This document shows, piece after piece, positions 3,790-63,821 of a stretch of 64,000 bases of DNA. Every line of letters starts with the position of its first letter. Within the stretch, counting starts at the first letter, position 1. Under the pieces are notes generated by a model, which saw nothing but the letters and a program-made list of their open reading frames with translations, did not search any database and had not been told where the DNA came from. Source of the stretch: Cyanidioschyzon merolae (taxonomy: Eukaryota); assembly GCA_000091205.1 (NCBI GenBank), contig AP006491.2. One strand, 5' to 3'. A program made the translations under genes and the position numbers.

Positions 3790-4007
3790 TACCCCGAGCT
3801 GGGCGCTTGGTATCAGTGCACGGTGTAGCATCCATCGACCGACGCCCAAGCCCCATAACCGATACTTCTGCTCGGATATACTGGTTGCTTTGTAGGTTCT
3901 ATCGTGCGCCAAGTGTGTGTCGTGAGCGTCCGCGGCAGCGCCCATAGCGCCGGTGCGGTCGCTGCACGGAGACAGAACATCGTTTCCGTACCACTGAGGG
4001 CGTCGGA
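3790..4007 (-). repeat. SINE-like dispersed repeat copy, head-proximal two thirds, no A-tail
   Basis: Segment-by-segment homology to 49430-49640: gtgcacggtg.agcatccatc ... ctcggatatactggttgctttgtaggttctatcgtgcgcc ... ccactgagggcgtcgga. Confidence 0.6.
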
Positions 4008-4309
4008 TCAAGGAATGCTACGCCTGACACGGACTCGGGGCTGGTTATCATTCTGGGAGCCTGCAAGCTACACATACAGAAATACTGCCTGGGGAAGCGC
4101 GAAAAATGATATGCTTGGAGTCCACTAGGAACAACGCGACGCCCAAACGCACACGAAACACCTCCAGTCCCAGAATGAAATGCCTTGCGTACGAGTTGCT
4201 CAGATCTCGCTGAAGCGTCCGTCGCTGGGCAAATCATGAAGCACAATCCTGGTAACTCGTCCGGCTCGCAGGAGCTTCCGCCTAGGAGATAAACTTTCGG
4301 CAATGCGGA

Positions 4310-6900
4310 AAGCTTTTCGACTTTTAAAGATAACCGTGGTGGCGGAAAGAAATCCTTTTCTCGTTATTACTAGGTGTCTAGTTTCTGTTCTTTTTTTCTA
4401 AAGTGCGCTCGATACGCGCACCTCTATATCTGGCAGGCATCAGACACGACGCGCATGCCGCCGTTGAAGGAAAACGCTATTCTGATCCTTCGCGTGTTGT
4501 TCTAAACTACAAGATGCATTTGCGTTAGAGCCCCAGCAAAGTATAGATTTTAGTTCTAGTGTGTTTCAACCCTAAGATTAACGTATGCAAGAGTTTTTCG
4601 CGGTTTATAACGGAAGCGTTCAAAATGCGTTCATTTTCAAAAATCAACATATACAGGAATTTTATGGGGATGCAGGTCGAGGACCCTGGGAGCACCGCTG
4701 TCGCCGACTGCCGGAAGAAAACCAAAACCAATGCCGAACCCAGAGGAACAAGACGACACCAAGGAGCAAAAGCGTGAGGCTCGGCGTCAGAAGCTGCGAG
4801 AAAGTCGACACTACCACGAGATAATTGTGAACGCATGTCTACTTGGACATACCAAGAATCCGTACAAGGAAAGGTTGCGGGACGCCATCAGAAACCGTAA
4901 CGAGTCGTACTCCAGGGGCATTATAAAGGCTTCGTCAGGGCTGATGCATTCGGTGGAGACGTATCGCGACGTGACGCACATCAAAACAGTCGAGGTTCCG
5001 GAGGAGGTTTTCGACAGGACCTTCATTAGGCACCTAATGCTTGGCAGAGAAGGAACCTCGATGAGAAATGAGCGAGTGCATGCCCTCCATGAAAACTGCG
5101 GCGAACAGCGCTTCAACGGTACTCGGTACGGCGAGAACTGGAAGATTTGCTGGTACGGGACGATGGAGTACCTCAGGAACCTGAAGAACCATTTGAACGT
5201 GAACCTCGGACGTTTCATGATACGCTCTATTTTTTTCGCTGTATCCGGGTCTCTCTCGCAAAGGGATATGGATCATCATCGATGGCATCTTTAACGATCG
5301 TAAGAATGAAGAGGAGATCGACTTTGGCGACTAGTAGACATCACGCTGGAGAAGGAATGCGGCTTCTGTAATCCGTACGGCTATTCAAGAGCACCGTGCG
5401 GTCTTGGCGCTGGCGAATCCAGTAGAAAAGATATCAGAGTTGAAAAAAGATGAAATGTACGTTATGCCCTCATCCTCCGCAATTTCGTGTTTTTGGACCG
5501 AGAACTCGAACGCAAAGCGGAGCTGAAGCTGAGTGAGTGGACAAATGACGAATCGGAGACACGGAAGGGTGCCCTAATGGGGAAGCGCTTCAACGTCGTT
5601 CCGTTGTGCAACATCAAGTCGCACTTTGTGAGTATCGACTCTGGCGTCCTTTACTGCATCAAGAAGGAGATCTGTCCGGAGTTCGATGTAAGGAAGATAG
5701 AGTTCACCGGCGAGAACCGGGAGACGTGCTGGAAGATCATCTTCGATTTCAAAAGTGTCAGATTGCGCAAGAAAACGGTATGCACTGGGATTATCGAAAG
5801 CGAATGGGTATGCATATGTGTTCACAACAGGCGCTTGAAGGTAAATCATCTTGTTCCGTCTTCGTTGGCGCCCTCGGCGAAGCGTGAAGAAAACAACGAG
5901 ACGCGCTCTGGAACACATGATCCGCAGGAGAGCGACTCTGTCGCTGGCGCGGACCCTGGGAATACGAACATCGTGACCATCGCTGCACCTTTTGTTGGGT
6001 AGATGGCAATGACCGCAACCTACGTCAGAAAGACATGCGTGTTCTAAAGTTCTCAGGAGCGAGGTACTATCGAGAATCGGGAATAATGAATGCGAGGAAG
6101 AAAACAGAGAAATGGAACGCAGAAGTGCAAGAGCACCTGGTAGCGATCAGCCAGGTGACGAAGCGCGGAGCGAACTTTCGAGCTTTTCTGGAGTTCATGA
6201 AAATTCTTGCTGCTGATGACGAGGCGCATTGGAAAGCGTATCCAAAAGCCCAGGTAAGCCCGTCAGCGTTTGAATCTGTACAGAGGGAAGCAGCGTACAT
6301 TCGTCACCTTTTCAATGAGTTGAGCGCCCTCAAAGAGCATGAAAGTCAAAGGCTCGTGGTGGCAAACTGAGCAGGGCGTCGGGTGCCCTGCCCAAAGGGT
6401 GTACACCAGCCCCGTCGACATGAGCGTACAACGAATGCGCACAGCGTTTTCACACCATACCGATGGATGAGTTCCGAGCATCCTATACACACCATGCATT
6501 GGGTTGTACGCTTCAGAGGGTCGATATGGAAAAGTGTCAGCGGAGCCCTGAGGGTGTAAAAAAGTCCGGAGCGCTGACGGTACAGCGAATGGAACCGAGG
6601 GCGCAAGTTCGAGGACTGCTTGCATTCGTAAGTACAAGCAATGATGGCAAGAAACGTATGCAGTTTGTGAACCAAGACTTTCATGCCGCTATCAATACCA
6701 GACGAGGAGTTTTCATGAACATGAGACCCGCAGCGCAGACAGAATCCAACTTTGTGGGGCCACCTCCCAAAGCTGCGTTCTACAAGGAGAAGCTGAAACC
6801 GACAGCGGACGGCGGGTCCATGAAAAACGCTACGAGCCGTCTGTTTGTGGGCGCACCAGTACACCGCACATAGGCGCGAGACATTTTTTGCTCTGCAGGT
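4310..6900 (+). mobile_element. Fanzor/TnpB-like RNA-guided nuclease element, copy 1. Decayed: the reading frame is split over 4 ORFs (4731-5294, 5487-6002, 6035-6370, 6463-6873) by a stop and frameshifts. Preceded by an AT-rich 5' block.
   Basis: K/R-rich N-terminus. RuvC-I-like [15 protein letters not shown] resembles GIDLGxxNxAT. The C-terminus has HHALGC..EKC followed by QDFHAAINT, the D.NAA.NI RuvC-III hallmark. Homologous to copies at 60100-62133 and 57125-57720. The frame breaks differ between copies, so they are lesions and not introns. Confidence 0.75.
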
Positions 6901-7111: not shown

Positions 7112-10100
7112 TTACCGACGAAAACGATAGCGTACAAATGGTACCTCAACTTCCTCACCAGTGGAGGCATCTTCTGCCATGACTTCGAAAACCAGGAAGC
7201 GGTCCTTGTCGGTCAGTTGTATTTTTCCAACGGCTTGCGCAAGCTCAGTAAGCGGCGTCGCGCGGCGTTCCGCGGCCTTTTTCGGTGCTAACCAGCCTGA
7301 AAAGAGGATCGCAACGCCACACGACATCATGCTGATATGGAGACCAAGCTCGCGCTCAAAATGCTCCATGAACTCGGCCAACGTCAGATCGTGTCCATTT
7401 CCATCTACCTCGATACGATCCCACAGCGAGAACGTACGGTTACCGCTGGGTGACATGGGCTGCAACGGGGCCTGGATTGGTTCGCTAAAGTTGAAAAGTG
7501 AAAGTGCCAGGTTCACGTAGCTGTTGCGGAAGCGCTCGAGCACCTTGACGCGATCGACGAGCGGGACGCTCGTTCCGTTCGTCACAGCGGAGCTCGTGCT
7601 GATCGCGGAGAAACTCGAAGCTGAAAGCGCCCGTGGATTCGTCCTCAAGATCGGACGGATCTGAGCGAGCTTGTAGATCTCGAGACACACGAGCCCTGCC
7701 ACCAGCGCGGTACTCGTGGCAATCGCGGGTATGATTCGCCCCGCGATGCCTCGTGACTTGTGCTTGTCCGCCAGCGGTATCCCATAATTCAAAGCGCGCA
7801 AATTGCTCGCAGCGGTGACGAAATCCATGTCCCAGCGATCCTCGTCGTCTTTCTCGAACTCCAACGGATAGAGGGACAAGCTGGCAAATGATTCGGGTGG
7901 CGGCAAGCGCGCCAACAGCTGCTCAATGCGTTGTTGGTCGACATTGGCGGTCACAGCGGCGCCGCTTGCTTGCGCCTCCTCCTCAGAAGCGGCAATCTTG
8001 ACACCAGAACTCGGTTGGAAAGCAGGTACCGAAACATTCGCAACGATCGCTCGTACCTGCTCGCGATCTGTGCAGAGAGGTATTCCGAACGTCTCTGCGC
8101 GCAGGTTTGCCGCCGCTACAATGAACTCAAGGTGCAACGGATCTGCAGGATCGAAACGAAGCGGCGTCGGCGCCCGTTTCGTCCCGCTCCAAAATGGCTG
8201 TCCCGAGCTGTCAACCATATCTGGCGGAAACGCGTGAAGTAGCTGGCGAATATTGTTGACGTAGAGTTCTTCGAACTTGTTGCGCGCCCAAACCACGCAG
8301 TCCTTGAAGTTTTGCGGGCGATACGTCTGCAGGTTCTCAAGTACGTTCTCCAAAGCTCCAGAAAATATGCCGGGTCCCTGTTTCTCTAGCTCTGCGATGT
8401 ACTCAGAGCCTCGCTCCAGGTACTGCTTGGTATCCTCGATGGAGGCCTTGAAGAGGCCCTCAAACAAATCGCGAGCCCATTGAAGCGTATGTTCGATTCT
8501 GTAGGGGAAATTTTTCAGCGTACACATGGGAATGCTTCGCTCCGGCGGGTCGCGCGACGATCCGTATGACTCGGTGAGATAGGGAACCACCACTTGGGTG
8601 CTGCCTTTGGTGCCTAGCGTGCCGGAATCCAGCAGAGGTTTCAGATAGTAAACGCAGCGCTGATCGATATATAAACGAGCGTCAACATTATCCAAGGCCG
8701 TGCAAACCCCATCGAGCGGCTCCCAGAAATCATCGCTGAAGACATGCTCGGTGTCCGGTCCAACGCGCATCTCGAGCGCTCGAACGTTGAGCTCCGGATT
8801 CAGCCGCAGAGCGGCATCGCGTGCCGCCAGGGACTTGCTGCGGCCAATGTCGGTTGCTCGGAAGAGAAACTGCCGATTCAGATTGCTCCGTTCTATCGTG
8901 TCCATATCGGTAATTGCAATCGATCCACCATGACTCGCGAGTCCCAGTCCCATGCACGCCCAACATTTGAGGAGCTCTGCAGCAATCGCTCCGGCCCCAA
9001 CACAAAAGTAGGCCAGATCGTGAATCGTATCCTGCAACGCACGGCCAAAGACTGCAATCTGTCCGTCATAGCGTGTCCCCCGGGGAGCGCACTCCAGCTC
9101 GTTTGGCAACGGCGTCGGTAACGCCTCCATGGCGTTGAACGAAAAGATCTGGTGAATGGGGGTAAACTTGCCGGTGACTGCCTTGAGAACCTCCTGTGCG
9201 GCGATCCCACCAAGAATCGATGCCATCGGAGCGAGCTCCCCGTATACGGTTCTGACAAACGCGTTAAGCAATGCATCGTGCTTTTCTTGAATATCGGCGG
9301 GTAGCATGCGCTTGAACGCCGCAACTTCAGCCTCAGTACCAGGCGCAGGCAACCGTCCGAATTTTGATAGAGCCTGAAACATGGCATGCAATGCAAAGGT
9401 TCGCTCCTCATTCATAAAGTCCAGCGATGCAAACCAATTCGGGTCCACCACGTCTGAGAGCGTGGCGCTCTCTGGATCCCATGTCGACGCTGCCATTCTA
9501 TACAGCAGCTCAACCGGGTGAAAGTGCACCGTGCGGGGTACTTTCACTTCAGTGACGATGCCACCCCGTCGGTAGACGCCGGCCTCACGGGTGTCAGCGT
9601 CAATCACAAAAGTATACGGACTCGTGATCTGAACGACACGAAACATCCGGTTGGGTTCATTGAACATGGGCATTCCGTCCACCTCGGTGAACATGACATA
9701 CATTCCTTCCTCCAGGTCATGCCGCTGATCATCGAGGCAGGTGACGCACGCCTTTTCCTCATTCGAAATATGGCTGATATGCGCGGATCGTGGCTCCTCT
9801 CCGTTGTCATCGATAACTGTATGGGCGTCGCCAAAATCGTTGAGGACGTAGCCGAATACTCCTCGTGACTGAACGATCGTCAGTGGCACCCTAACCGATC
9901 GGCAGACGCGATCGAGCTCGATGTGCCTATCGATGGAGAGCTCGTTCACTAGCACAACTGCTGCAAACCCACGAATACGATCTGGATCAATGAGTTCCGC
10001 CCAGGACGCCGCGTCCTCCGTGTACACGTGACAGTACGGGTTCAGCTCCACTAGGTGCGGTACCACGACCGTATGAAGTGGTGTCCCCAGCAGTGACGCA

Positions 10101-10552
10101 TCGCAAGCGTAAAAATTGGCGGCCATATGCTGCAAAGCTAGTGGTGCTGGATCATAGACGTGGAGCGCATGGAAGCCAGCCAGCGCCAGGTCTTTCGCGA
10201 TCTCCGTTCCCGTCCCTGTGAGTCCAATCACCAGCACTGAAGCTCCTGCGAGGCGACGTTGCGCCTCGTGACCCAGCACGTACAGTTGACGCGAGTACAG
10301 GGACTCGTCTATGGCCCCGCTCTCTGCTTGCGTGCGCGACACGCGTTCCGGTGGGACAGAGTCCCCCAGCCGCAACATGCTTGTCCGGCGGTTTTTCCAA
10401 CTACCCGAAGGCGACTCACCGTCAGGGCCCCGTAACAGACGTTTGCTTCCGGTTCCCGTCTTGACGCTTTTCGCTTTTTCGCACAAACCTGCGCACAAAT
10501 ACAGCTGAAGACGACGCCTGCCGCTGATCGCTTTGTCGACTTTGTTCACCAC
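7112..10552 (-). CDS. UBA1: Ubiquitin-activating enzyme E1 (UBA1-like), single exon. The true start may be the internal Met at ~10378 (MLRLGDSV..).
   Basis: 1146-aa ORF. IDESLYSRQLYVLGHEA and VLVIGLTGTGTEIAKDLALAG form the ThiF/MoeB adenylation fold. A second adenylation domain and the catalytic Cys context PMCTLKNFP are present. The UFD-like C-terminus is present. Confidence 0.95.
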   Translation of the reverse strand: MVNKVDKAISGRRRLQLYLCAGLCEKAKSVKTGTGSKRLLRGPDGESPSGSWKNRRTSMLRLGDSVPPERVSRTQAESGAIDESLYSRQLYVLGHEAQRRLAGASVLVIGLTGTGTEIAKDLALAGFHALHVYDPAPLALQHMAANFYACDASLLGTPLHTVVVPHLVELNPYCHVYTEDAASWAELIDPDRIRGFAAVVLVNELSIDRHIELDRVCRSVRVPLTIVQSRGVFGYVLNDFGDAHTVIDDNGEEPRSAHISHISNEEKACVTCLDDQRHDLEEGMYVMFTEVDGMPMFNEPNRMFRVVQITSPYTFVIDADTREAGVYRRGGIVTEVKVPRTVHFHPVELLYRMAASTWDPESATLSDVVDPNWFASLDFMNEERTFALHAMFQALSKFGRLPAPGTEAEVAAFKRMLPADIQEKHDALLNAFVRTVYGELAPMASILGGIAAQEVLKAVTGKFTPIHQIFSFNAMEALPTPLPNELECAPRGTRYDGQIAVFGRALQDTIHDLAYFCVGAGAIAAELLKCWACMGLGLASHGGSIAITDMDTIERSNLNRQFLFRATDIGRSKSLAARDAALRLNPELNVRALEMRVGPDTEHVFSDDFWEPLDGVCTALDNVDARLYIDQRCVYYLKPLLDSGTLGTKGSTQVVVPYLTESYGSSRDPPERSIPMCTLKNFPYRIEHTLQWARDLFEGLFKASIEDTKQYLERGSEYIAELEKQGPGIFSGALENVLENLQTYRPQNFKDCVVWARNKFEELYVNNIRQLLHAFPPDMVDSSGQPFWSGTKRAPTPLRFDPADPLHLEFIVAAANLRAETFGIPLCTDREQVRAIVANVSVPAFQPSSGVKIAASEEEAQASGAAVTANVDQQRIEQLLARLPPPESFASLSLYPLEFEKDDEDRWDMDFVTAASNLRALNYGIPLADKHKSRGIAGRIIPAIATSTALVAGLVCLEIYKLAQIRPILRTNPRALSASSFSAISTSSAVTNGTSVPLVDRVKVLERFRNSYVNLALSLFNFSEPIQAPLQPMSPSGNRTFSLWDRIEVDGNGHDLTLAEFMEHFERELGLHISMMSCGVAILFSGWLAPKKAAERRATPLTELAQAVGKIQLTDKDRFLVFEVMAEDASTGEEVEVPFVRYRFRR

Positions 10553-15870: not shown

Positions 15871-16170
15871 CTCGAGTCGGCGCCCTCTGTGTGGTATAGA
15901 AAAGCCGTTCTAGCTCTATGAACTATCTGCTCCAGCGGTTCAGGCGCAAAGGCGGAGACGGAACTGCAGGTTCTAGGCACACACGATAGGTCGTATGAAC
16001 CGACCAGAATATCCTAGAAGAAGTATAGGTCGTGTAACTTGGAGGTAGGGTGTTTCATGGATACTTCACCGTGCACTGAAAAAAACACAAAAAGAAAGGA
16101 AAAAGCGCACAATCGGAGAACGCTGGCACAAGTAAACGTCTTGTCCATGAAAAAACAAGAAGAAAAAAAT
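15871..16170 (+). repeat. SINE-like dispersed repeat, near full-length copy in sense orientation. The head is ctcgagtcggcgccctctgtgtggtatag and the A-rich tail is gaaaaaacaagaagaaaaaaa. It is flanked by an imperfect ~12-bp direct repeat.
   Basis: Reverse-complement homology to 49335-49640 along the whole length. Flank cacggcgtctcc (15859-15870) matches catggcgtctgc (16172-16183) at 10 of 12 positions. Confidence 0.65.
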
Positions 16171-21611: not shown

Positions 21612-22094
21612 AGCGACCTCTATAACGATTGAACTTGTTCGACGTGCGTGTATGTCCTACAACAACCCGACACGCATTCGAATTCGCATACGCACGCATC
21701 CGGCGCACGCATGCACCGACGGTGATGAAACGCCATCGCGATGCGTGCGCAGCATGCGGCGGTGGTGGCGGTGGCGGTGCCGGTGGCGATGCCGGTGGCC
21801 AACTCCCGTACGTTGGGTCTGTAGGCGGCATCGCGATCGCCCTGCGATGCGGCTACGGCGGCGTCGGTACGCTTCCGCCGCGGCCCGATGCGCTACGAAA
21901 TCCGTTGACAGCGCGGTGACGTCGCGCGCGTCGAGCCTCGGATGCGGCGTTCTATCGCGTGTAGCGATGCTGCTGATTTTTTTCATTGACAAAACGCTTA
22001 ATTTGACCACGGGTCCTCGAATGAACGATGATCATTGACGACTAGGGTGATCGGCCATCGTAAAGCACCCTGCATCCGGGTTCCATCACCTGTT

Positions 22095-22200
22095 CTCTGA
22101 TGTAATGATCGTTTTTACGTTCTATCGTGCGCCGAGTACCTGCTTTTGAGCGCCTGATAGAACGCCTGTAGCGTCACGCATGGAGTAGCGGGAGCACCGA
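22095..22200 (-). repeat. Short fragment of the SINE-like repeat family
   Basis: gatcgtttttacgttctatcgtgcgccgagtacctgc..gagcgcctgatagaacgcc aligns to ggtcgtttcatacgttctatcgggtgcgcttagtacc of the 49335 copy. Confidence 0.45.
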
Positions 22201-34425: not shown

Positions 34426-37400
34426 TCGAGACGGTAGACAGGTACGCTAGCGCAGCCAGTTGCCCGCCTTTTCTGGCCGGCAGACTGCAGTAGGTTTCAG
34501 CTTGTGCTTGCATACTTCGAGCCTGAGAAGCTGTCCGACAAATCTAGATGGCGGCAGCTCCTTGGGTCCCGTCTTCAGCGCGGCAAAACTCCTGATATAG
34601 ATAGCAGCGTTAAAGTCTCATTTCACAAACTCCATGCGTTTATTGCCGCTGCTCGAGCTGACCAATGGAAGGAGGCATCGGACTCGTGCCCGCTGTGCCA
34701 CTTGGTTCGCTGTCAGCAACTCGTACTTTTCTGTGGCCGAAGGTCTCCGCTGTCTTCTCTCCGTATCGACCCTCTGGCGTGTACATCTGTGCTGATTCCT
34801 TAGATTTTACTTGCTTCATATGAACGCACTTTTTTATGCTCTTAGGTGAAGACCTTCCCCCGGCGAGAGGGACTTGCGGAAGAAAGAAGGCATATGTCCA
34901 AACGTCAGCGTGTGCTAGAAGCCGCAGCGATTCTGTCTGAAGAGCGATCATTACGTTTCAGGACTGAAAACGCTCTTTCGATGGAGTTGAGCCACGGAGA
35001 GTACGAAGGAATGAAAAGCAGCTCTACTCCCGGATAGAATCAGCGAAAAGCTCGAACGCGAAGGGCAATGGTGAAATGCTATGTTGTCCAGTAGAAGGAC
35101 GTCGCCAGACCTGCGGGGAAAAGTCTTCGATCATTCGACGAAAGGGTTGCTGTTGTATGAGCGTTCCCTACGAGCGAAACTCAGGCCGTCAAATGAATCC
35201 ATTCTAGCTAGAACAGATGATGATGTCCTCGTTCTCCTCGAGTTCTACCGAACATTGCACGGGCTCCGTCTCCGCAAATACCCATCTACGCTTCAACCGC
35301 TTCATCCGAAGCAAGTCTCATCGACTGAAACAAACCGACATGACTCCGCTTCATGCTCATCGCGACGTTCCAGCAACGCTATCCTTGCGATTTCGGTGCA
35401 AGATGGTCGCGCGTGAACTACGACTCTTTTTGCGACTATATCCCAGTGTTTTCAGGACGACACGAACAAGCCGTTCAGAAACAGAGACGCCCGTGGTGGC
35501 TGTTACCGTCGCTTTTGCTTTCCATTACATGATCAACGGCTCGTTTTCTATCATTGGCCGAAAGCAGTCTTTCACAGTACCAGTTTCTGGCGCGTGACGC
35601 GTATACTTCTTTCTTTCAGTTTCCCCAACCATCTGAGTGCTGTGGTACATCTGACCTGAATGCGGAATGCAGTCCTCGTTCCACTATTCAGTAAAGAATC
35701 TTTCCTAAAGAAAGTTCGTCGTCAATCTACAATATACATTGCGTAGTGTTTCCGATCTCCTGCAACACACCACGAAAAGCATTCAATTAAATGCAGCGAA
35801 GTTTGAACAATGTTGAGTGGAAACACTATGAACAGGTGGATCTCCTCTGGTCTGGATGCAGCAAGTCGCAGATATGTCGCAGGATGTAACATTTGGTTTC
35901 AGGGAACTGTTATCGAGCTTTGGGACGATTCCAGATCTCCTGAACGCTCTCGATTTGGCATTGTTCTGAATTGTCCATTGCTGCAGCGTATGGACGTGGA
36001 GCCGTTCTCTGAGGAATTCCGATAAAACGCTTTCGAGTGCGTCTCAATTCGACCTAGGCATGAACAGCCGGGGCGTTGGAAGCGCCTCGGAAACGTCAGG
36101 CTGTGTGCAGCATATTAGCATTTGCTTGGGCAGGAAGCAAGGATTCCGCCTCGCATCACCTACATCGAAAGTGATCAAAGCATACAAGCAACGCATTCGC
36201 CAGCTCAAATTCCAAAGTGCCAGCGAATGGACGGCCCAGTCGCGCTGGCGAACCTTGTGCGCAAGCCTCATGAGGAATCCCCAAACCTCTGGCGTATCCT
36301 GGCATCTGCACTTACCGATTCGCTTCACGAACATTCACCCATGCGCCCGCAAGCAAACGCATTCCTGGCAGCAATGCTTTGTATGCGGATATTTCGTTAA
36401 TATCGCAGCTTACAGGTTATCTTTCGCTGCAGCGACAGAACAGGGCATGCCGTGCAGCTCCGGCTGTCGCAAGCTTATTTGCAACCCTTCTCCTGAATCA
36501 CGTATAGGCGACTGCGAACCGGCAACTACAGATTGCAGCTTCCGAGACGCGAACCAGCTTCTAATCGATGCCGGCGACGTTGCTCGCTATCGCACGCTGG
36601 CGGCAGCGCGTACCAGTCTCCCGTCGACGCATGGGGAACGAGCATACGCAATCCAAATGCTCGTGTTTCTGTGCGTCATTTCCAAAATATATAGCTTTGT
36701 CTCTATCATTTGTCTGCCGATCCATGCACGCCAGTGCTGCTCGCATCGCACCGTTTTCTCGACTGCACCATCAATCGATCATTCGAGCCGAATTCCCTGC
36801 ATGCACTGCGATTGCCGTTCGCAACCAGGGAAGCGCGAAGACACCTCCATGCCTTTCGGGGGCGCATGCAGCTCGCATAAGACCCCGATCACTCGTCACG
36901 TTGCGTAGAACGCATGAACCCAGCGAATGCGCCATTGTTCAGCGCCATTTGAACCCCCCGCTGCGTCGCCGAAAGCGCCATCCACGCGATACCCGCCCAG
37001 CAACAGCGCAGCAGCGTCGACTCGAGACACGCCTCCGGTTGCCGTGTGATCGACGAGCTCCCGCAGCGCGTGCAGATCACCGGCGAAGGCAACGAAGAAG
37101 CCGCAAGGGGCATTGCGCTCCGGATTCGAGCTGCCAACGGACGCGCGCGCCCAGCGATGCGATGCGACGCCCTGGGGATCACGACGGCACGCATCGCCTT
37201 CGATTTTCTCCCAAACGCGTTCATTTCTACCACAAGTTTCGCGGGCTCCAACGGCGAAATCCATTTTTGGTGGGGACACGTGTCCGTCGTGATGGTGCGT
37301 TCCTGGCCAATGATATATCGAACGAAAACAGTGCTTGAGACCTTTCCTCTGTATTCTTCTGCGGCGCGGCTGTTATGGATGGACACCGTCGGCTACGTGG

Positions 37401-49334: not shown

Positions 49335-49640
49335 CGTTCGATTTTTTTCATAGACAAGACGTTTACTTGTGCCAGCTTTCTCCGATTATGCGCATTTATG
49401 TTTTCTTACCTCTTTTGTGTGTTATTTTTTGTGCGCGGTGAGGTATCCATCAAACGTCCTACCTCCAAGTTACATTACCTATACTGATTCTCGGATATTC
49501 TGGTCGTTTCATACGTTCTATCGGGTGCGCTTAGTACCTAACCTAATCATACGCCTTTGGAACTTAACCGCTGGAGCAGATAGTTCATAGAGTTAGGAGG
49601 GCTTTTCCATACCACAGAGGGCGTCGGTTCGAGGCGTGGT
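49335..49640 (-). repeat. SINE-like dispersed repeat, near full-length copy. The A-tail complement ttttttt is at 49336 and the head complement ..gagggcgtcggttcgagg is at ~49640. It lies immediately upstream of the aldolase gene.
   Basis: Reference copy for the family alignments. Reverse-complement homology to 15871-16170. Internal segments are shared with the 1-170, 3790-4007, 22095-22200, 34265-34425 and 50545-50720 copies. Confidence 0.65.
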
Positions 49641-50544
49641 TCACCCGACGTAGAACTGGGATTCGTCGTCAGTGTGTGCTCGGACAGTCTGCGGATGCAG
49701 GCTTGCCTTCGCTGCACGACACGCTGGAGAAACTTCACTGTTAGGATATATCGTGGGGGCCGCCTCTCTCCTTCGTGATCATGCATGGAATGCGTTGTTG
49801 TCGGTTGGCAATGCGGGTTTGTGCTCGACACTCATACAGAAGGTAGGCGCAGAAAGCGCACTAAACCCGTGTGCGCATCCGATTCGCTGGACCATCCGCC
49901 TAGAAGGTAGCATGTGAGTTTGTTCGCCACTAGTGAGCGCTGAGGCTCTGTTAGCGGACCATCAGTTGCCAGTGCTGCACTCAAAGTGAGTGTCCGGCCG
50001 TCGACTATCACGGTGATGCCCAGCTGCTGCTGTCCTTCAAGGAGATCGCTGCGCTCCTGCTTTCAGCGCGGCCACTGTAACAGTAAATATGTCAGCGTCT
50101 CGGGGATCTCGTCTCGACAGCAGGGACAGTGTGATTCCCAGTGCGATTCCAGTGCTCCTATCCGGCTTAGAGCCGGTGCTGCTAGTCAGAAACCACCAAC
50201 GTGGATTTTGGCGAGCCACTGGGTACCGCGAGCAAGTCCCGGGAATTCCAGCGCCTCCCACCAGTACTTGCATGTGTATGCTAGGTTGTAGTTCCGGTAT
50301 AGAGTCAAGCCGGCGTTACGGGCGCGACTGGTTCCGTGTCTACGTTCCCATATTGGTGTTCGGACCGTTCGCTTGAGGCGTCTGAAGTCTTCTACATTCC
50401 TGGGGAACGATTGGAGCGGACAGCCTGCTTCTGGGCGTCGCGCTGGTCCGAGTGGACTCCGAGTACGTCGCTTCGTGCTGCTGCAAGCATTAGGTCTGTC
50501 TGCGCAGCTTACTGGCTCCCAGCATGATTATGTAGTCCGAACCC

Positions 50545-50720
50545 GTATCCAATGAACCACAACTTGAGGCGACGCCCTCACTGGCATGGCAAAGCCGTTC
50601 TGTCTCCGTGCCGCATCTGCTCCAGGGGTGTAAGCGCGATTGCGAATGCTCAAGGAAGGTTACGTGCACAGTGGAATGCACGAAATAACCAGTACATCCG
50701 AAAGGAAGTACAAGTAATGG
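50545..50720 (+). repeat. SINE-like dispersed repeat, head-proximal fragment in sense orientation
   Basis: cttgaggcgacgccctcactggcatggcaaagccgttctgtctccgtgc... is the revcomp homolog of 3900-4007. The CTCAGTGGTA-like stretch resembles a Pol III box A. Confidence 0.55.
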
Positions 50721-51071
50721 AACCTGAAGGTAGGGTCCAGCAGCATGATGGGCGCTTTCCCGAATGTCAATACCGATCTATCGCGCAATCTGGCCTCCAT
50801 GGTCCATAGAAGCGCTTTGGCATCGGCGGGAGAACCGGGCGTCGCCCCGCGCTGCGCTCCATGGAACAATGCTCAAATCACGAATAAATTGTACTTTATT
50901 AAATCTGTATGTACTATGATGTACAAAATAGCATTCCAGGAATCCCGAGATCACACACGCGCTCGAGACGTGAACTGTCTCGTCACTCTCGGCTACGGCT
51001 TCATCTTCCTCGTATTTCTTCGCCATTAGATACGAGTGCGGTAAGATTCTGGGCTGAAGTTTTCAATATTA

Positions 51072-56880: not shown

Positions 56881-57124
56881 GGAGCAGGCGAGCGGACCAA
56901 CTCCAACCGGCCTGCGCAGTTTCGCGTACCCCCAGCAGACACTTCGGAAACGCCCGACAAACAGCCGCTCCTGGCGTCCCGGGTGCGAAACGCCTCGCGC
57001 ACACAGACGCGTTCGTGCTGCACACCCGTGTCGACTTGAGCTCGCGGGCGCAACGAAGCCAGCCAGACTCGGTCTCGAATCAGCAAAGAGGTACCCCTCG
57101 CCAAACGCCATTCTTAAGTCGAAC

Positions 57125-57720
57125 GACGCCAGCGGTGTACAGTAGTGGCGACCGGGCCGCCCTAGAAGAAATGTCTCCGACTGATGTGCAGAAGCCTGCC
57201 CGTCTTTTTGGACCGGCCACCTACTACTGCTTCAAACTTTTTCTCATATAGTTTAACTTTGAGCGGTTTTCCAACCAAATTCTCTATCGTCGACCCGAGA
57301 GGTCTTTCCTCTCTCACCGCACATTTCCTTATATTGATTGCGGCGTTAAAGTCTCGGTTCACAAACTCCATACGTTTCTTGCCATTGATTGTACTTACTA
57401 ACGCAAGCAATCCTCGAACTTTCGCTATCCTTTCCATTTGCTCTTCTGTCAGCGGTCCGTACTTTTTTTATATCCTCAGGTCCCCGCTGGCACTTTTCCA
57501 TCTCGACCCTCTGAAGTGTACAGCCCAGTTCATGGTGTGTATACAATGCTCGAAATCCATCTACCGGTATTATAACAAAACGCCGTGCGCACTCCTTATA
57601 CGTTCTCGTCGTGGGATCTGGTGTACACCCTTGTTGGGTCGTCCAGCGCCTTGCTTCGTACGCTACTACGAGCCTTTGACTTTCATCCTCCTTCAAGGCA
57701 CTCAACTCACTGAAAAAAAA
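57125..57720 (-). mobile_element. Fanzor/TnpB-like element, copy 3. This is a 3' fragment: the C-terminal RuvC-III region plus the conserved 3' non-coding tail. It is inserted between divergent CYTH and SulP genes.
   Basis: ORFs 57346-57705(-) and 57162-57437(-) encode ...YTHHELGCTLQRVEMEKCQRGPEDIKK and ..KKRMEFVNRDFNAAINIRKCAV. The tail ..ccactactgtacaccgctggcg matches the copy-2 tail. Confidence 0.7.
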
Positions 57721-59904
57721 ATGCGAATGCCCGATACTCCCTACATTATAGATTCATGCGGAGATCAAACTGCCCGCCATCCGAGATTGCATGTACGGAT
57801 CTCAGCGCTCGCGTCGGAAGCATCGGCAGTGGACGAGCGCCTTGTTGTGCACTGCCTGTCCACTGGACACGCAAGGTACTTTCGTCGGAACATGGGCGTT
57901 GAGAATGCTTTAGGCGGTTTCATAGTAACGAATACCTTCAGCGGTAGCGGTGTACGTTTCGTCGTACGGAACCGGAGCCAGTGCAACTCGCTGGTGGTGC
58001 CTGGGTTCCGCGCGAGGCGGCGTACGCGCTGCGGAGCACTTGCTCGCGTACGGGGGACAGATTCGGCGCCAGAGGGTACCCCCGACGCCGAAGCGAGGCA
58101 CCGTCCCAAGCCTGGTGAGCGAGGGCTCTTCCCGCTCGTTGCACCGCGTGAGGATATCGGGCGCTATTTCGTTGGAGAGCGTCGGATTTTGGACGAACGC
58201 ACAGCGCGCTATCCGCTACGCTCGACGGTAGAGGAAGTGCTGGCGGGCATTACGGTGGCGATGGCGCTGCTGCCTGCGGCGGTGTCTTGCGCGTTGGCCA
58301 CGGGCGTGCCGCCGCTCGCTGGAATCGTCTCGACTGGTCTCCTGTGTGCGATAACTGCCGCACTGGGAGGACGCCCTGGCATGATCTCAGGAACATCTGC
58401 AGCGCTCATTATTCTGCAAGCGCCTCTCTATCAACAGTACGGCGCAGCAGCGGTCGCTGCCGCCGTGGTGCTCAGCGGTATACTCCAGCTTTTCTTCGGG
58501 ATCTATCGTTTGGGAAAGTTTGTGCGGCTGATATCGTACCCTACCTTTCTGGGATTCATCAGCGGCATCGCCATCTTGACGGCGACAAGTCAGGTCTATG
58601 CGTTTCAGCTTCCAGCGGGAACCGGGCTGAGCCCGGGCGCACCCTGGCTCCAGGGTAACATGTTGCGTGCAGCGTTGATCGTCGCAGCGCTCGCCGCTGG
58701 AGTCGCCCATGTATGGCCCTTGATCATTCAGCGACTACAGCGCCGGCGCCCCGATAGTACCCATCGGTGGCAGCACCGCCTCGCTGAGCTGTTGCGTTGG
58801 CTCCCAAGCCCACTAGCGGGCATCCTCGTGGCATCCATTTATGCGGAGGTGACGCAAGCGCCTGTGCGGCGGCTTGGCGACTTTTTGCGCGACACGCTGG
58901 CACAGTCAGGGGCCATTGGCGTATCCTGGGCAGCCCTGCCGTCAACACCGCTGGCATGGATGGCCATTCTGAGCACCGCGCTTGGTCTCGCATTCATCGG
59001 TCTTTTGGAATCTCTGTTAACCATGACTTTGGTAGACGAAGTCACGGAATCGAGGGGTAGCACGCGTCGGGAGTGTCTAGCGCTTGGGGCAGGGAATATC
59101 GCCGCGGGCTTATTCGGTGGCGTGGGCGGCTGCGGCCTCCTGGGCCAGTCGCTCCTGAACACGAAATCAGGGGGACGCGGGCGTCTCTCTGGACTGACTG
59201 CGGCGCTGTGTCTTCTCGTGTTGGCGAGAAATCCGAGCGGACTGATGATTCGGATTCCCGTCCCAGCCATTGCAAGCCTTATGGTGCTGGTGGCGCTGGG
59301 CTCGTTCGAATGGGCATCGCTGCGCTTGTTTCGTGCCATACCTCTCGCTGATTCGCTGACCATTGTGAGCGTTGCCCTGATGACTGTAGCAACGCGCAAC
59401 GTCGCCCTGGCGGTCCTGTTTGGTGTGGTATTCTCGGCGCTGGTCTTTGCCTATAAAGCGTCGCGACGCATTACCGCCCAGAGCTTTATTTCGGAGGACG
59501 AGCAAACGCGCGGATGGCGGGGATACCGGATTGACGGTCCGCTGTTCTTTGGCACGGCGGAGCGCTTCAGTCGTCTGTTCGACCCAGCACGGGATCGTGC
59601 CGAAGGCCATGAGCACGTGATCATCGACTTCTCTGGTAGCCGCATCTGGGACGCGACAGCGCTAGAGGCGCTAGACTCCCTAGCCCGTCAGTATAGGAGC
59701 TATGGTATTCGGCTGCATCTGTGGGGTCTGTCTCGAGATAGCGCACGTCTGCTGCGCGAGGCACGCGCCTACATCGACGAGAGTGTCACGAACGAGAAAG
59801 CGCTCTACTTGTACGAGCGGGTTGTAGCCGACTATCCCACAAACGATAGTCTAGAGGTTGAGTACGAGCTTTTCGCGAAAAGAGAATCGGGGAATGCAGC
59901 GTAA
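57721..59904 (+). CDS. SulP-family sulfate/anion transporter with C-terminal STAS domain. The start is taken at the Met at 57721 (alternative 57886). The longer ORF from 57184 overlaps the Fanzor fragment and is rejected.
   Basis: Sulfate_transp-like N-terminus LAGITVAMALLPAAVSCALATGVPPLAGIVSTGLL. Multiple TM helices. The STAS domain is HVIIDFSGSRIWDATALEALDSLARQYRSYGIRLHLWGL. Confidence 0.88.
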   Translation: MRMPDTPYIIDSCGDQTARHPRLHVRISALASEASAVDERLVVHCLSTGHARYFRRNMGVENALGGFIVTNTFSGSGVRFVVRNRSQCNSLVVPGFRARRRTRCGALARVRGTDSAPEGTPDAEARHRPKPGERGLFPLVAPREDIGRYFVGERRILDERTARYPLRSTVEEVLAGITVAMALLPAAVSCALATGVPPLAGIVSTGLLCAITAALGGRPGMISGTSAALIILQAPLYQQYGAAAVAAAVVLSGILQLFFGIYRLGKFVRLISYPTFLGFISGIAILTATSQVYAFQLPAGTGLSPGAPWLQGNMLRAALIVAALAAGVAHVWPLIIQRLQRRRPDSTHRWQHRLAELLRWLPSPLAGILVASIYAEVTQAPVRRLGDFLRDTLAQSGAIGVSWAALPSTPLAWMAILSTALGLAFIGLLESLLTMTLVDEVTESRGSTRRECLALGAGNIAAGLFGGVGGCGLLGQSLLNTKSGGRGRLSGLTAALCLLVLARNPSGLMIRIPVPAIASLMVLVALGSFEWASLRLFRAIPLADSLTIVSVALMTVATRNVALAVLFGVVFSALVFAYKASRRITAQSFISEDEQTRGWRGYRIDGPLFFGTAERFSRLFDPARDRAEGHEHVIIDFSGSRIWDATALEALDSLARQYRSYGIRLHLWGLSRDSARLLREARAYIDESVTNEKALYLYERVVADYPTNDSLEVEYELFAKRESGNAA

Positions 59905-60099: not shown

Positions 60100-62133
60100 C
60101 AGCGTTCCGCTCCGCAACGTTCCATCCATTGCACCGAAGTGCGCCCCGTCGACAACACATTCCAGCGTGGGATCAGGCGCACGAAGTTTCCCTGGCACAG
60201 CAGCAGTGACGGACATCAAAACAGTCGAGGTTTCGGAAGCGTTTTCGACAGGACCTTGATTTGTCGCCTGATGCTTGGCACAGGGGAAACGCGGAGGGGA
60301 AATGAGCGGGTTCATGCCCTCCACGAGAATCACGCCGAGTACCGCCCTGAGGGTACTCGATTCAGGGGTGATTCGGATCTTTAAACCTACGGGACGATCA
60401 AGTACCATACGGACCTGAAGAACCATTTGACGATGAACCTCGAACGCTTCATGAAACGCTCCGTCTATGCACTCTACCCGGGCATCGCTCGCAAAGGAAT
60501 ATGGGCGATTATCAATGGCATCACGAAGGATTGCCAGAATGAACAGGAGATCGAATTCTTCGACAAGAAGACATCACGCAGGAGAAAGAATGAAGCTCCT
60601 GTAATCCATTGGGTTATACAAGAGCATCGTGCCGTACTGGGGCTGGCGAACCCAACAGAAAAGTTATCAGAGATGAAAAAAAGATAAGAAAAGATACGAT
60701 CGCCTCATCCTGCGCTATTTCGTGTTCCTGGACCAAGGACTGGAACGCGAGGCATAGATGAAGCTGAGTGAGGAGAAAAATGATGCGTCGGAGAAACGAA
60801 AGGCTTTCCTAATGGGGAAGCACCCTAACGTCGTTCCGTTGAACAACATCGAGTCACACTGTGTGACTATCGACTCCAGAGTCCTTCAAGGCATCATGAA
60901 GGAGATCAGTCCCGAGTTCGATGTTAGCAGGGAGGAGTTCTCCGGTGAAAATCGGGAGATGTACGGGAAGAACATCTTCGATGTCAATCGTCTCAAAGTG
61001 AGCAAATAAAAGGTATTCGCTGGGATGATCGAAACCGATGGAGTAGCCATGTGTGTACAGTATCGGAGGTTGAAGGTGGATCGTCCCATCGCGCCTTGGG
61101 CTTCGCCCGTGACGAAGCATGAAGATAAGATGGAGATGGGCCCTGAAACGTGTAATCCCCAGGATAACGACCTTGTCGTTGGCGCGGACCCCGGGAACAC
61201 GAATATCGTAACCATCGCAGTACCCAAGCGTGCGGAAGATGGCATTGACGGTAACTTGCCTCAGAAAGACATGCGTCTGTTGAGATTCTCGAGAGCGAGA
61301 TACCATCGAGAATCGGGAATCATGAATGCAAGCAAGAAAATCGAGACGTAGAATGCAGGAATGAAAGAGCACCTGGAAGCTATGACCAAGTTGACTAGCC
61401 GAGGAGCGGACTCGGAAGCTTTTCGGAAATTCATGGAAGTTCGTGTTGCTCACTGGAAGGCGCTGTGGAAAGAGTATACAAAGTCCCGGTAGGCTTGTCT
61501 GCGTATGAGTCTATTCCGTGGGATGCAGCGGGCGTTCGCAAACTTTTTCAATGGGTTGAGCGCCTTGAAGGAGGACGCAAGTCAGAGGCTCCTGGTAGCA
61601 CACGGAGCAGGGCGCTGGAAGACCCGAAAAGGATGTACACCAGCTCCAACGACAAGAACGTACATGGAGTGCGCAAGGCGTTTCGTTACGATACCGGTAG
61701 ATGAGTTTCGAGCGTCCTATACGTACCATGAACTGGGGTGTACGCTCCAGAGAGTCGAGATAGAAGAGTGCCAGCGGAGCCCTGAAGATATAAAAAAGTA
61801 CGGACGGCTGGCGGAAGAGCAAATGGAAAGGAGGGCGAATGTTCGAGGACTACTTGCATCAGTAAGAACAACCAATGGCAAGAAACGTATGGATTTTGTG
61901 AACCGAGACTTTAACGCAGCCGTCAATATAAGGAGATGTGCGGTGATGGAAAGAAGACCTCCAGGATGAACAAGAGTGAACTTTGTTGGACAATCATCTA
62001 AAGTGGAACTATATGAGAAAAAGTTGAAACGAGTAGTAGGTGGCCGGTCGAAAAACCTGGGAGGCGTCTGCACATCAGTTGGGGACGTCTTGTCTAGGGC
62101 GGGTTTCCCGCCACTACTGTGCACCGCTGGCGG
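60100..62133 (+). mobile_element. Fanzor/TnpB-like element, copy 2. It is decayed, with in-frame stops and frameshifts across ORFs 60139-60384, 60427-60687, 60758-61009, 61025-61351 and 61505-61969. Its conserved 3' tail ends ~90 bp before the RCC1 gene start.
   Basis: [15 protein letters not shown] (RuvC-I-like). YTYHELGCTLQRVEIEECQRSPED. MDFVNRDFNAAVNIRRCAV (RuvC-III). ~75-80% nucleotide identity to copy 1 over ~2 kb. Confidence 0.75.
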
Positions 62134-62222
62134 CAGCGTTTTTCTTTGAAAGGCGTGCGGTGTGCGCAGCATATCGACATAGTTCGTTATCGTGCACCAT
62201 AGTCTCTGTTCACTGCACCGGC

Positions 62223-63821
62223 ATGGTACACCCAAACGCTGGCGCGCAGGGCGCCGAGCTCCTGTTCTGTGGCTCCTGCAAATGGGACACACAGGGGCGC
62301 GACCGCAAAGGCGCCATCGAGTACGGGGAAGAGGTACTAGCGCCACATCGTCTCACGGGCTCGGTCACACTGGGAGGTCTCACGACACCAGCTGACCGAG
62401 CACAGATGCTGCGGATCGTTAGCGGACCGGTGGCAGCGCACGCCGTGCTCATTTTAACTGACGGACGTGCGCTGGCAATAGGGCGAAACACGCACGGTGA
62501 GCTCGGTATAGGTACAGCGCGGCGCTTTGCTCCAGTGTTTATGCCTGTCGTCTTCATCAAGGGCGGGCGCTGCACCGGCGCCGCCTGTGGTCGCACACAC
62601 ACGCTCTTCCTCATGGACGACGGCGTGGTGTACGCGACCGGGGCGAACGATGCAGGTCAGCTTGGTGTCGGTGCGCGGGGCATCAGCGCCAGCGGGGCCA
62701 ATGTACCGGCAGCTGTGACCCCGATCCGCCTGACGTACCTCGCAGAACATATGGGCGTGCGAGCAGCCCAGGTAGGATGTGGAGAACAGTTCTCCGTCGT
62801 GCTCGCTGATGACGGCTCGCTCTACACTTTTGGAACACATCGGGACGGTGTCCTGGGACTGGGCACCACCGGCGAAGTCATTGGCAAACAACGCATGGAG
62901 GTGGAGAGCGAACCCCTGCCGCGACGGGTCACGCGCTTCGTGCGCTCGGACGGCATCGTCGTTGCTCTCGATGAGTCCAAAAGCATGGACGAACAAAGCG
63001 AGGATATACCCCGCTTCACACAGGTAGTTTGTGGTCAGCGGCATGTGGTTGCTCTAGACTCCCGCCACCGCGTCTGGTCGTGGGGATTCGGTGGTTATGG
63101 TCGTTTAGGTCATCGAACGCCGAACGATGAGCTGCGTCCCCGATGCATGGAGTTTTTCGAGCGTTTGCGCGACGACCGCCGGCGATGTGTCAAGCTATAC
63201 GCTGGCGCCTCCTGCTGCTATGCGCTGACCGAAATGGGCACCGTGTACTTTTGGGGCATCACAAAAATGACCGGTGAAGCGACGACATCGCCGCAGATGC
63301 TCTACGATTTGCACGGCTGGAAAATTCGAGATATCGCCGTGGGCATCTCATCGACGATGATCGCTTGTGAGGAGTGCACGACGATCGCCTGGGGTCCGTC
63401 ACCCGCCTACGGCGAGATGGGTTTCGGTGAGACCGTCGTTGGAAGGAGTTTTGCAGGCAGGACAGGCGTACTCAAAAGCAGTACCCAACCACGGATTGTC
63501 GATCCGCTGAAAGGCGTCCAAGTGAGTCAGCTTGCGATGGGGGCTTTTTTCACGTTCCTCCTGCTTCGACCCGAGGAGGTGCAAGCGTCAGACGACCAAG
63601 GCACGAAGGTGCAAGCACTCCCGACGCTCTCGTGGGATGCGCATGCCAATATCGGCGCGCAGCCTGTACGCGGTTTGACGATCCTCGACGCAAGCTCGTT
63701 GGGGTCCCGGCGCGGTCGGAAACCCGGCAAGGTCGCTGCTCGAGCGACCAGCAGCGCGACTAAAACCCGCGTAACCTCAGTGTCCGCGGTCGTTGTTCCG
63801 GAAAAGAGGCGCCGCACCTAG
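62223..63821 (+). CDS. RCC1-repeat (RLD) protein. The ORF extends upstream to 62040.
   Basis: Repeated beta-propeller blade motifs GELGIGT, GQLGVGA, GVLGLGTTG, GRLGHRT and GEMGFGE at ~50-aa spacing. Confidence 0.8.
   Translation: MVHPNAGAQGAELLFCGSCKWDTQGRDRKGAIEYGEEVLAPHRLTGSVTLGGLTTPADRAQMLRIVSGPVAAHAVLILTDGRALAIGRNTHGELGIGTARRFAPVFMPVVFIKGGRCTGAACGRTHTLFLMDDGVVYATGANDAGQLGVGARGISASGANVPAAVTPIRLTYLAEHMGVRAAQVGCGEQFSVVLADDGSLYTFGTHRDGVLGLGTTGEVIGKQRMEVESEPLPRRVTRFVRSDGIVVALDESKSMDEQSEDIPRFTQVVCGQRHVVALDSRHRVWSWGFGGYGRLGHRTPNDELRPRCMEFFERLRDDRRRCVKLYAGASCCYALTEMGTVYFWGITKMTGEATTSPQMLYDLHGWKIRDIAVGISSTMIACEECTTIAWGPSPAYGEMGFGETVVGRSFAGRTGVLKSSTQPRIVDPLKGVQVSQLAMGAFFTFLLLRPEEVQASDDQGTKVQALPTLSWDAHANIGAQPVRGLTILDASSLGSRRGRKPGKVAARATSSATKTRVTSVSAVVVPEKRRRT

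Follow-up and report, generated by a model that had tools for sequence, protein, structure and literature searches.

Coding tail and candidate ωRNA scaffold at the right end of a Fanzor1 repeat in Cyanidioschyzon merolae

Which part of the 3' end of a decayed Fanzor gene in Cyanidioschyzon merolae could encode a guide RNA (ωRNA)? The gene lies near the end of a 64,000-nucleotide stretch of contig AP006491.2 (assembly GCA_000091205.1), which was analyzed as a whole and is called the window here. An original prediction had ended the gene at a TGA codon and read the bases that follow, 61970-62133, as a conserved non-coding block and candidate ωRNA scaffold. We find instead that 61970-62094 is C-terminal coding sequence of a Fanzor1 gene whose true stop codon is the TAG at 62095-62097, and that the element ends ca. 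65-70 nt past this family stop. A structured right end with a plausible scaffold does exist, but it is not 61970-62133; the most likely ωRNA scaffold of the family, judged from sequence and by analogy with known systems, is probably the segment from 62095 to ~62163.

Four copies of one repeat are present in the window:

Copy 1, 4731-6873, plus strand: full-length Fanzor1 pseudogene, frameshifted.
Copy 2, 60206-62097, plus strand: Fanzor1 pseudogene, 5'-truncated at 60206; the repeat reaches ~62166.
Copy 3, 57091-57768, minus strand: 3' fragment, 5'-truncated, with the frame open throughout the tail.
Copy 4, 34583-34785, minus strand: short decayed remnant that takes in RuvC-III and the beginning of the tail (…DFNAAIYIRS…RFVGQ…KHKLKP…).

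Further copies were taken from a metagenome scan that returned 416 relatives, from which 80 loci were retrieved. Copies are ca. 80% identical to one another (median 0.81). A family consensus was built from 31 full-length copies, and nucleotide diversity was profiled over 52 representative copies. A scan of viral contigs matched no relative.

The coding status of the flagged block turns on three features of copy 2:

61967-61969, plus strand: TGA, a copy-specific nonsense codon, taken by the original prediction as the stop of the gene.
61970-62094, plus strand: Fanzor1 C-terminal coding tail, family frame TRVNFVGQSSKVELYEKKLKRVVGGRSK…RRLHISWGRLV.
62095-62097, plus strand: TAG, the family stop codon, where the consensus open reading frame (ORF) ends.

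Only copy 2 has the TGA: its counterpart is TCG in copy 3 and a sense codon in the consensus, and none of the other rows of the 52-copy alignment shows a stop there. It is in frame with an open frame downstream, and the same tail frame is open in copies 1, 3 and 4 and in the family consensus. Copy 3 reads past the equivalent of 61967 to end …STIENLVGKPLKVKLYEKKFEAVVGGRSKKTGRLLHISRRHFF, the consensus ORF runs uninterrupted through the tail to end …RPPELTRENFVGQPLKVELYEKKLEAVVGGRSKKTGRRLHVSWRRFV, and copies 1 and 4 have the same tail peptide in diverged form (NFVGPPPKAAFYKEKLKP… and RFVGQ…KHKLKP…, respectively). The equivalent of 62095-62097 is TAG or TAA in 48 of 74 copies, and in 38 of the 74 the tail frame reaches that codon after 43 or more open codons. 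The longest open frames, kept by some metagenome copies (739 codons in locus L058, then 606, 551 and 490), all traverse the tail and end at the same place. In copy 2 the family TAG is out of frame because of a 1-nt deletion near 62056, which, together with the private TGA, masks the coding nature of the tail. About 125 of the 164 bases of the flagged block are therefore coding, contrary to its description as non-coding. This is an annotation trap: a private nonsense codon in a decayed Fanzor or TnpB copy can make conserved coding sequence resemble a conserved non-coding RNA.

The peptide encoded by the tail has counterparts in more distant proteins. Intact homologues that are 36-38% identical terminate in RP..L.R..F.G……KR*, with RP..(L/F).R..F.G conserved; the family profile places RP..F.R at the very C-terminus of both PpFz1 and SpuFz1; and the C-terminal strand of the tail is modelled with a predicted local distance difference test score (pLDDT) of ~73-82. 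Purifying selection on the peptide is weaker toward its end: diversity at third positions is 1.2-1.6 times that at first and second positions in the last ~60 codons, compared with 2-5 times upstream.

The original prediction assigned the copies to Fanzor, which profile and fold matches bear out and narrow to Fanzor1. A 39-sequence family profile matched the solved structures of PpFz1 from Parasitella (9CF0, E=9e-20), SpuFz1 from Spizellomyces (8GKH, 3e-12) and GtFz1 from Guillardia (9CER, 3e-5); neither a phmmer single-sequence search nor a 7-sequence profile gave a match among Protein Data Bank sequences. An AlphaFold (AF2) model was examined for the homologue P0067, which matches the window family with E ~1e-106; the model has a pLDDT of 86, and its top Foldseek matches are PpFz, SpuFz and GtFz (E 1e-17 to 1e-13, template-modelling score 0.55-0.70), with Cas12 proteins far lower. 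RuvC motifs are present in the copies and the consensus, including NRDFNAA(I/V)NI (NRDFNAAVNI in copy 2), and the catalytic-type RuvC D/E/D residues D416, E593 and D662 are invariant across the 39-sequence alignment. In Pfam, the window ORFs gave a sub-threshold Cas12f1-like TNB match only, and TNB was found in 5 of 39 homologues. By these profile and model comparisons the gene family is Fanzor1.

None of the four window copies has an intact ORF, all being interrupted by stops or frameshifts or truncated. Copy 2 has five in-frame stops (60755, 61007, 61349, 61490 and 61967), one frameshift near 60680 and the deletion near 62056, and its similarity to all other copies begins at 60206. Because every window copy is a pseudogene, the Fanzor1 system within this window is a relic. 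A single frame spans ~1.5 kb of copy 2 (60677-62146), broken by its five in-frame stops.

Is the block nevertheless conserved in the way expected of an RNA? Copies 2 and 3 do share it: in a local alignment of 61495-62132 with 57768-57127 (minus strand), the part from 61970 to 62132, matched to 57290-57127 (minus strand), is identical in 134 of 169 columns (79.3%). Nor is the tail absent from other copies, as it occurs in 72 distinct copies among the 80 metagenome loci. A larger segmental duplication is excluded as the source of the similarity because the sequences beyond ~62166 in copy 2 and ~57091 in copy 3 are unrelated. The claim that the block is more conserved than the adjacent coding DNA fails, as the upstream coding sequence of the same two copies is 82.3% identical (Fisher p=0.42) and nucleotide diversity in the family is higher in the tail, at 0.13-0.20 over 61880-62044 and 0.16-0.32 over 62045-62149. 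The more diverged version reported for copy 1 is there as protein-coding sequence, since its tail (6700-6873) is discernible only at the protein level; past the stop, however, copy 1 is degenerate, and neither of the covariance models R1 and R2 matched its right end.

That the whole of 61970-62133 is a non-coding scaffold conserved above coding sequence is thus highly improbable. The ωRNAs of TnpB and GtFz1 do extend into the end of the ORF, by 17 codons in GtFz1 (PMC10432273), so that part of the coding tail could in principle contribute, and the tail contains the complementary segments AGUAG/CUACU and GGCGUCU/AGACGUU. However, the block is coding and lies no higher in conservation than coding DNA, and its coding part is not exceptional in folding (z=+0.47 for 61970-62091 of copy 2, z=-1.63 for copy 3). 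Covariation in the candidate coding-tail helices CCGGUC/GACUGG, GGCGUCU/AGACGUU and long-range AGUAG/CUACU did not rise above shuffled or slid controls, and substitutions in two coding-tail windows showed no structure-preserving bias (z=+0.54 and -0.15).

The right boundary of the block also had to be moved. In the 52-copy profile, diversity is 0.23-0.32 from the stop to ~62149, 0.50 over 62150-62164 and ~0.7, the random level, past 62165. Because diversity climbs to the random level there, we place the right end at ~62160-62166 rather than at 62133:

62160-62185, plus strand: right-end boundary at ~62160-62166, then flanking DNA, from the diversity step and the alignment.

The family stop is thus followed by ~65-70 conserved nt, an abrupt loss of conservation and a variable flank, a layout for which the evidence is positional. 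Two hairpins are predicted in this segment:

62095-62116, plus strand: stem-loop 1 (SL1), a GC-rich hairpin abutting the stop, with its core GGCGGG/UUU/CCCGCC at 62098-62112.
~62122-62163, plus strand: stem-loop 2 (SL2), the terminal hairpin, with an inner stem pairing 62137-62144 with 62148-62155, CGUUUUUC/UUU/GAAAGGCG.
Within ~62122-62163, plus strand: outer arm of SL2, CACCGCUGGCG paired with CGUGCGGUG.

Only the first ~38 nt of this candidate scaffold fall inside the flagged interval, and the main hairpin, 62137-62155, lies outside it. In copy 3, the stop TAG is 57164-57162 (minus strand), SL1 and SL2 extend from 57164 to ~57095, and covariance model R1 matches 57091-57167 (minus strand) with 74 bits.

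Several observations argue that the fold is maintained. Both hairpins are seen in the minimum-energy folds of most copies, and SL2 reaches 19 bp in the metagenome locus L005. Fold z-scores on the sense strand are -2.6 for copy 2, -1.8 for copy 3, -4.1 for L005 and -2.9 for a second metagenome locus, L039; reverse strands gave -1.5 and -1.3. The SL2 inner stem is 94% paired in type I copies, and where its consensus pairs are Watson-Crick, departures are of the G·U type in 36 cases versus five of the A·C type. SL1 has six supported pairs, with a G-C to C-G swap at its apex between subfamilies. The strongest mutual-information pairs of the region are in the SL1 apex and SL2, and two subfamilies retain SL2 despite five changes and a one-base register shift. 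An alignment-free test of mutational robustness was restricted to element bases and run with strand and coding controls: in type I copies, the observed substitutions keep the fold stabler than an equal number of random substitutions in the consensus (mean z=-1.08, 83% of copies below zero, p=2e-4), whereas the reverse complement gave z=-0.02. When 53 distinct copies were aligned with a covariance model, five of five covariation measures surpassed all 500 shuffles and every slid control. When the covariance model was run within 500 kb, its matches fell solely at the 3' ends of Fanzor copies, beside Fanzor ORFs.

A number of results weigh against a scaffold at 62095 to ~62163. The SL2 outer stem is only 52-62% paired, and in the lower three pairs of SL1, A·C-type departures outnumber the G·U type, with a TAG/TAA variation that fits coding constraint and not pairing. 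We do not regard the UAG:CUA base of SL1 and the SL2 outer stem as supported, because the excess of G·U over A·C departures is absent there. When 20 type I copies were aligned by sequence, the structure was 80% paired, compared with 37-55% for slid partners, and covariation equalled that of shuffles; it stayed at shuffle level when 60 distinct copies were aligned with a sequence-only model. RNAalifold found essentially no consensus structure over the wider 263-column alignment of 52 copies. The covariance-model alignment on which covariation is significant is biased toward structure because it was fitted to structure, and the p-values are optimistic because the copies are phylogenetically related. 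The covariance model had no match in distant relatives, whose 3' regions are longer (185-230 nt), and Rfam yielded no credible family, its two matches being at chance level (E=6.6 and E=9.6). Thus, the covariation check suggested in the original prediction comes out positive on a structure-fitted alignment and negative on sequence-based ones: formal covariation support for the scaffold depends on the alignment, and the sense-strand substitutions preserve the fold. An exhaustive scan for helices compatible with at least 80% of copies gave dozens of candidates and was set aside as uninformative because the copies are ca. 80% identical.

These mixed results bear on the possibility that the hairpins have neither a guide nor a transposition role and are a structure of the mRNA 3' untranslated region or of 3'-end formation, or neutral sequence that has not yet decayed. 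The diversity of 62097-62149 (0.23-0.32) is near that of third codon positions (0.26-0.33), so its primary sequence is barely constrained, and the non-significant covariation on sequence-based alignments fits as well. Yet a neutral hairpin should decay at such divergence, while the copies fold better than random mutants, and in the sense orientation only; the hairpin survives the five changes and the register shift between the two subfamilies; and the predicted layout agrees with that of Fanzor1 ωRNAs (PMC11423790). We therefore regard this possibility as improbable.

The reading of 62095 to ~62163 as an ωRNA scaffold draws on the published systems. In published Fanzor1 systems, the 3' end of the element encodes the ωRNA, which spans the right end (PMC10432273, PMC11423790); in the three solved complexes the ωRNA consists of an SL1 of 7 bp, at least one further stem-loop and the guide, and measures 75-90 nt in PpFz1 and SpuFz1 (PMC11423790). 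The family examined here resembles SpuFz1, PpFz1 and GtFz1 in fold and profile, in its RuvC D/E/D residues and in a C-terminal RP..F.R after RuvC-III, although its sequence is just ~12-14% identical to them. Two predicted stem-loops and then a variable flank would parallel the layout of the SpuFz1 and PpFz1 ωRNAs (PMC10432273, PMC11423790). SL1 would abut the stop with 6 GC-rich pairs, and SL2, at 11-19 bp, would be much longer than in PpFz1 or SpuFz1. The 30-nt inverted repeats of SpuFz1 loci are not found. The likeness would extend to the TnpB ωRNAs of IS200/IS605 elements such as ISDra2, with a guide RNA at the right end, a flank that acts as guide and hairpins at the transposon ends; unlike ISDra2, the family has a eukaryotic host and a larger protein and is without TnpA. 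The ISDra2 ωRNA overlaps the tnpB ORF extensively, whereas the coding overlap here lacks a structural signal.

By this analogy, the transcript of the right end in active members would provide an ωRNA scaffold of SL1, linker and SL2, and read-through into the first ~15-20 nt of the flank would provide the guide for the Fanzor1 RuvC nuclease; in copy 2 the guide would begin at ~62167. We found no guide RNA for this Fanzor1 family in the literature searched, and the segment ~62095-62185 of copy 2 offers a testable candidate (SL1, SL2 and guide) for an old and abundant family from extremophilic red algae. If correct, it would give a thermo-acidophilic lineage a compact Fanzor1 scaffold, ~70 nt long, and would help to explain intact nuclease genes in a family that lacks terminal inverted repeats or a transposase. 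A Fanzor1 gene with a 3' guide-RNA region is in itself a known kind of system, and the family fits one described in 2013, to which we return below.

The same hairpins could instead be cis-acting transposition signals on single-stranded top-strand DNA, and not, or not only, a guide scaffold. This, too, counts against the scaffold, and we hold it to be rather unlikely but deserving of weight. Sub-terminal hairpins are found in IS200/IS605 elements, and 3' hairpins in Helitrons and in Helitron2 elements with Fanzor1 in Chlamydomonas. The structure of the repeat suits such signals in several ways. Terminal inverted repeats are lacking in the family, as also stated for CMe-1A, an element described from C. 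merolae (PMC3627910), and no left-end/right-end pair recurred consistently when three full-length loci were compared. Many copies, including copies 2 and 3 and several metagenome loci, are 5'-truncated with an intact 3' end, and there are foldback derivatives bounded by two right ends. A GC palindrome is also present at the left end of the core, and a 10-nt match resembling an asymmetric terminal inverted repeat (ATIR) joins the start of a 5' module to the sequence before the stop. The closest named homologue is volvocine (Gonium), and Chlamydomonas Fanzor1 elements are carried by Helitron2 with 3' hairpins (PMC3627910, PMC10530073). A strand asymmetry like the one seen in our fold tests would likewise be expected for a hairpin on a transferred DNA strand. 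On the other hand, neither RepHel nor a Y1 transposase was seen in the loci, and a short repeat that shares the 5' module is without this right end. The hairpins travel with the nuclease gene, since R1 matches occur only beside Fanzor ORFs. Subfamily B is without the module on which the ATIR-like match depends, and the many fixed G·U pairs suit RNA better than DNA. The transposition and ωRNA readings are nevertheless compatible, because the transposon end and the ωRNA share sequence in TnpB and Fanzor systems.

Such a combination may be imagined as a dual-purpose right end that serves both as ωRNA scaffold and as a signal acting in cis for a kind of spread not yet described, single-stranded and one-ended, a proposal to which we assign a low probability. 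The element family would then consist of Fanzor1 only, without terminal inverted repeats or a recognizable transposase, and one-ended spread would account for the 5' truncations as well as for the foldback derivatives with a right end on either side. If this were true, the family would persist in Cyanidiales genomes mainly because of the nuclease itself, acting by homing or by repair-mediated copying.

The structures just mentioned were seen as follows. In locus L023, two 5'-truncated Fanzor copies stand head to head (1405-2395 on the minus strand and 2572-3548 on the plus strand), and both arms reach the right end. Similar inverted pairs occur in L004, L005, L014, L015, L069 and L074, with a partial left arm that is mostly cut by the contig start. 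The pairs are joined at the equivalent of window position 61160 with a spacer of ~177 nt and look like a family of foldback-like derivatives. The core common to all subfamilies begins ~580 nt upstream of the 60206 equivalent in full-length loci (L045, L038 and L079, for example), and this left boundary bears a GC-rich palindrome, GCGCTCA-G-TGAGCGC, with subfamily variants such as GCGCTCGATACGCGC. GACAAAACGT at the start of the 5' module (L046, 339-348) is the reverse complement of the consensus ACGTTTTGTC directly before the family stop; in copy 2 the pre-stop sequence at ~62085-62094 is ACGTCTTGTC. The match resembles a Helitron2 ATIR, yet lies 65-70 nt from the 3' end. A T-rich stretch upstream of the left end was considered as a Helitron-like TTTT target and rejected, being part of the repeated 5' module. 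Finally, L026 has a tandem partial duplication of the right-end segment (685-802), with sequence-only model matches at 685-749 and 750-802.

CMe-1A was described from Cyanidioschyzon merolae by Bao and Jurka in 2013 as an element of ~3 kb, with copies ~80% identical to the consensus and without terminal inverted repeats; its 5' region of ~635 bp is common to the short repeat TE-N2_CMe, and a few copies are still intact (PMC3627910). The present family is likewise ~3 kb long, ~80% identical between copies, without terminal inverted repeats and hosted by Cyanidiales, with long ORFs kept in a few copies, and its 5' module of ~650 bp also occurs in a separate short repeat. The family thus fits the published description of CMe-1A. 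That description predates ωRNA and contains no 3' RNA element (PMC3627910). The 5' module, which starts GATTTTTTTCAT|TGACAAAACGTTT, adjoins copy 1 and the elements of subfamily A and also stands alone several times in the window, where it occurs as follows:

3827-4480, 21977-22136 and 49352-49521, window: 5' module.
50413-50825 and 16003-16146, minus strand, window: 5' module.

Among named elements, the family also recalls the Helitron2-borne CRe-1, CRe-2 and CRe-3 (CrFNuc-1) of Chlamydomonas, which combine 5' truncation with intact 3' ends and a 3' terminal hairpin. In C. reinhardtii, a small RNA (fRNA) has been mapped to the 3' untranslated region of Fanzor (PMC10530073). Unlike those elements, the family here has no RepHel partner in view and no confirmed ATIR or target-site duplication, and its genes are intron-less; its candidate 3' ATIR lies ~65-70 nt from the end, compared with 20-30 nt in the Helitron2-borne CRe elements.

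The relatives that are 36-38% identical (L083-L088, L002 and L089) sit in Tc1/mariner-like elements, and in the loci of one of them, P0076 (L083-L086), an ORF for a DDE_3 transposase lies ~350-400 nt upstream of the Fanzor gene. In all three groups of these relatives, a conserved 3' region of 185-230 nt ends in …GAGTATA or …GGGTATA, after which the sequences diverge. A hairpin and then ACUGUA or ACUGGA follow the stop codon in these relatives, which resembles SL1 and CUGUA in the window family.

Within the protein, a tandem peptide repeat (…KHEEKKEA…QKVQDND…) of 1-5 units lies directly N-terminal of the RuvC-I aspartate (P0001, P0006 and P0009; ~61113-61170 in the window), and its variable copy number accounts for a frame break in the nucleotide consensus. 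The nearest named homologue is from the volvocine alga Gonium, and green-algal proteins are the closest named ones. Host genes near the copies are long intron-less ORFs at 7115-10378 (minus strand), 57184-59904 (plus strand) and 62223-63821 (plus strand) that encode UBA1, a SulP-type transporter and an RCC1-like protein; the mechanically called ORF at 57184-59904 begins within copy 3, on its antisense strand. These host genes are of Cyanidiales red-algal type: UBA1 is matched at 100% identity only by JGI metagenome proteins, at 80% by its Cyanidiococcus yangmingshanensis counterpart and at 63% by that of Cyanidium caldarium.

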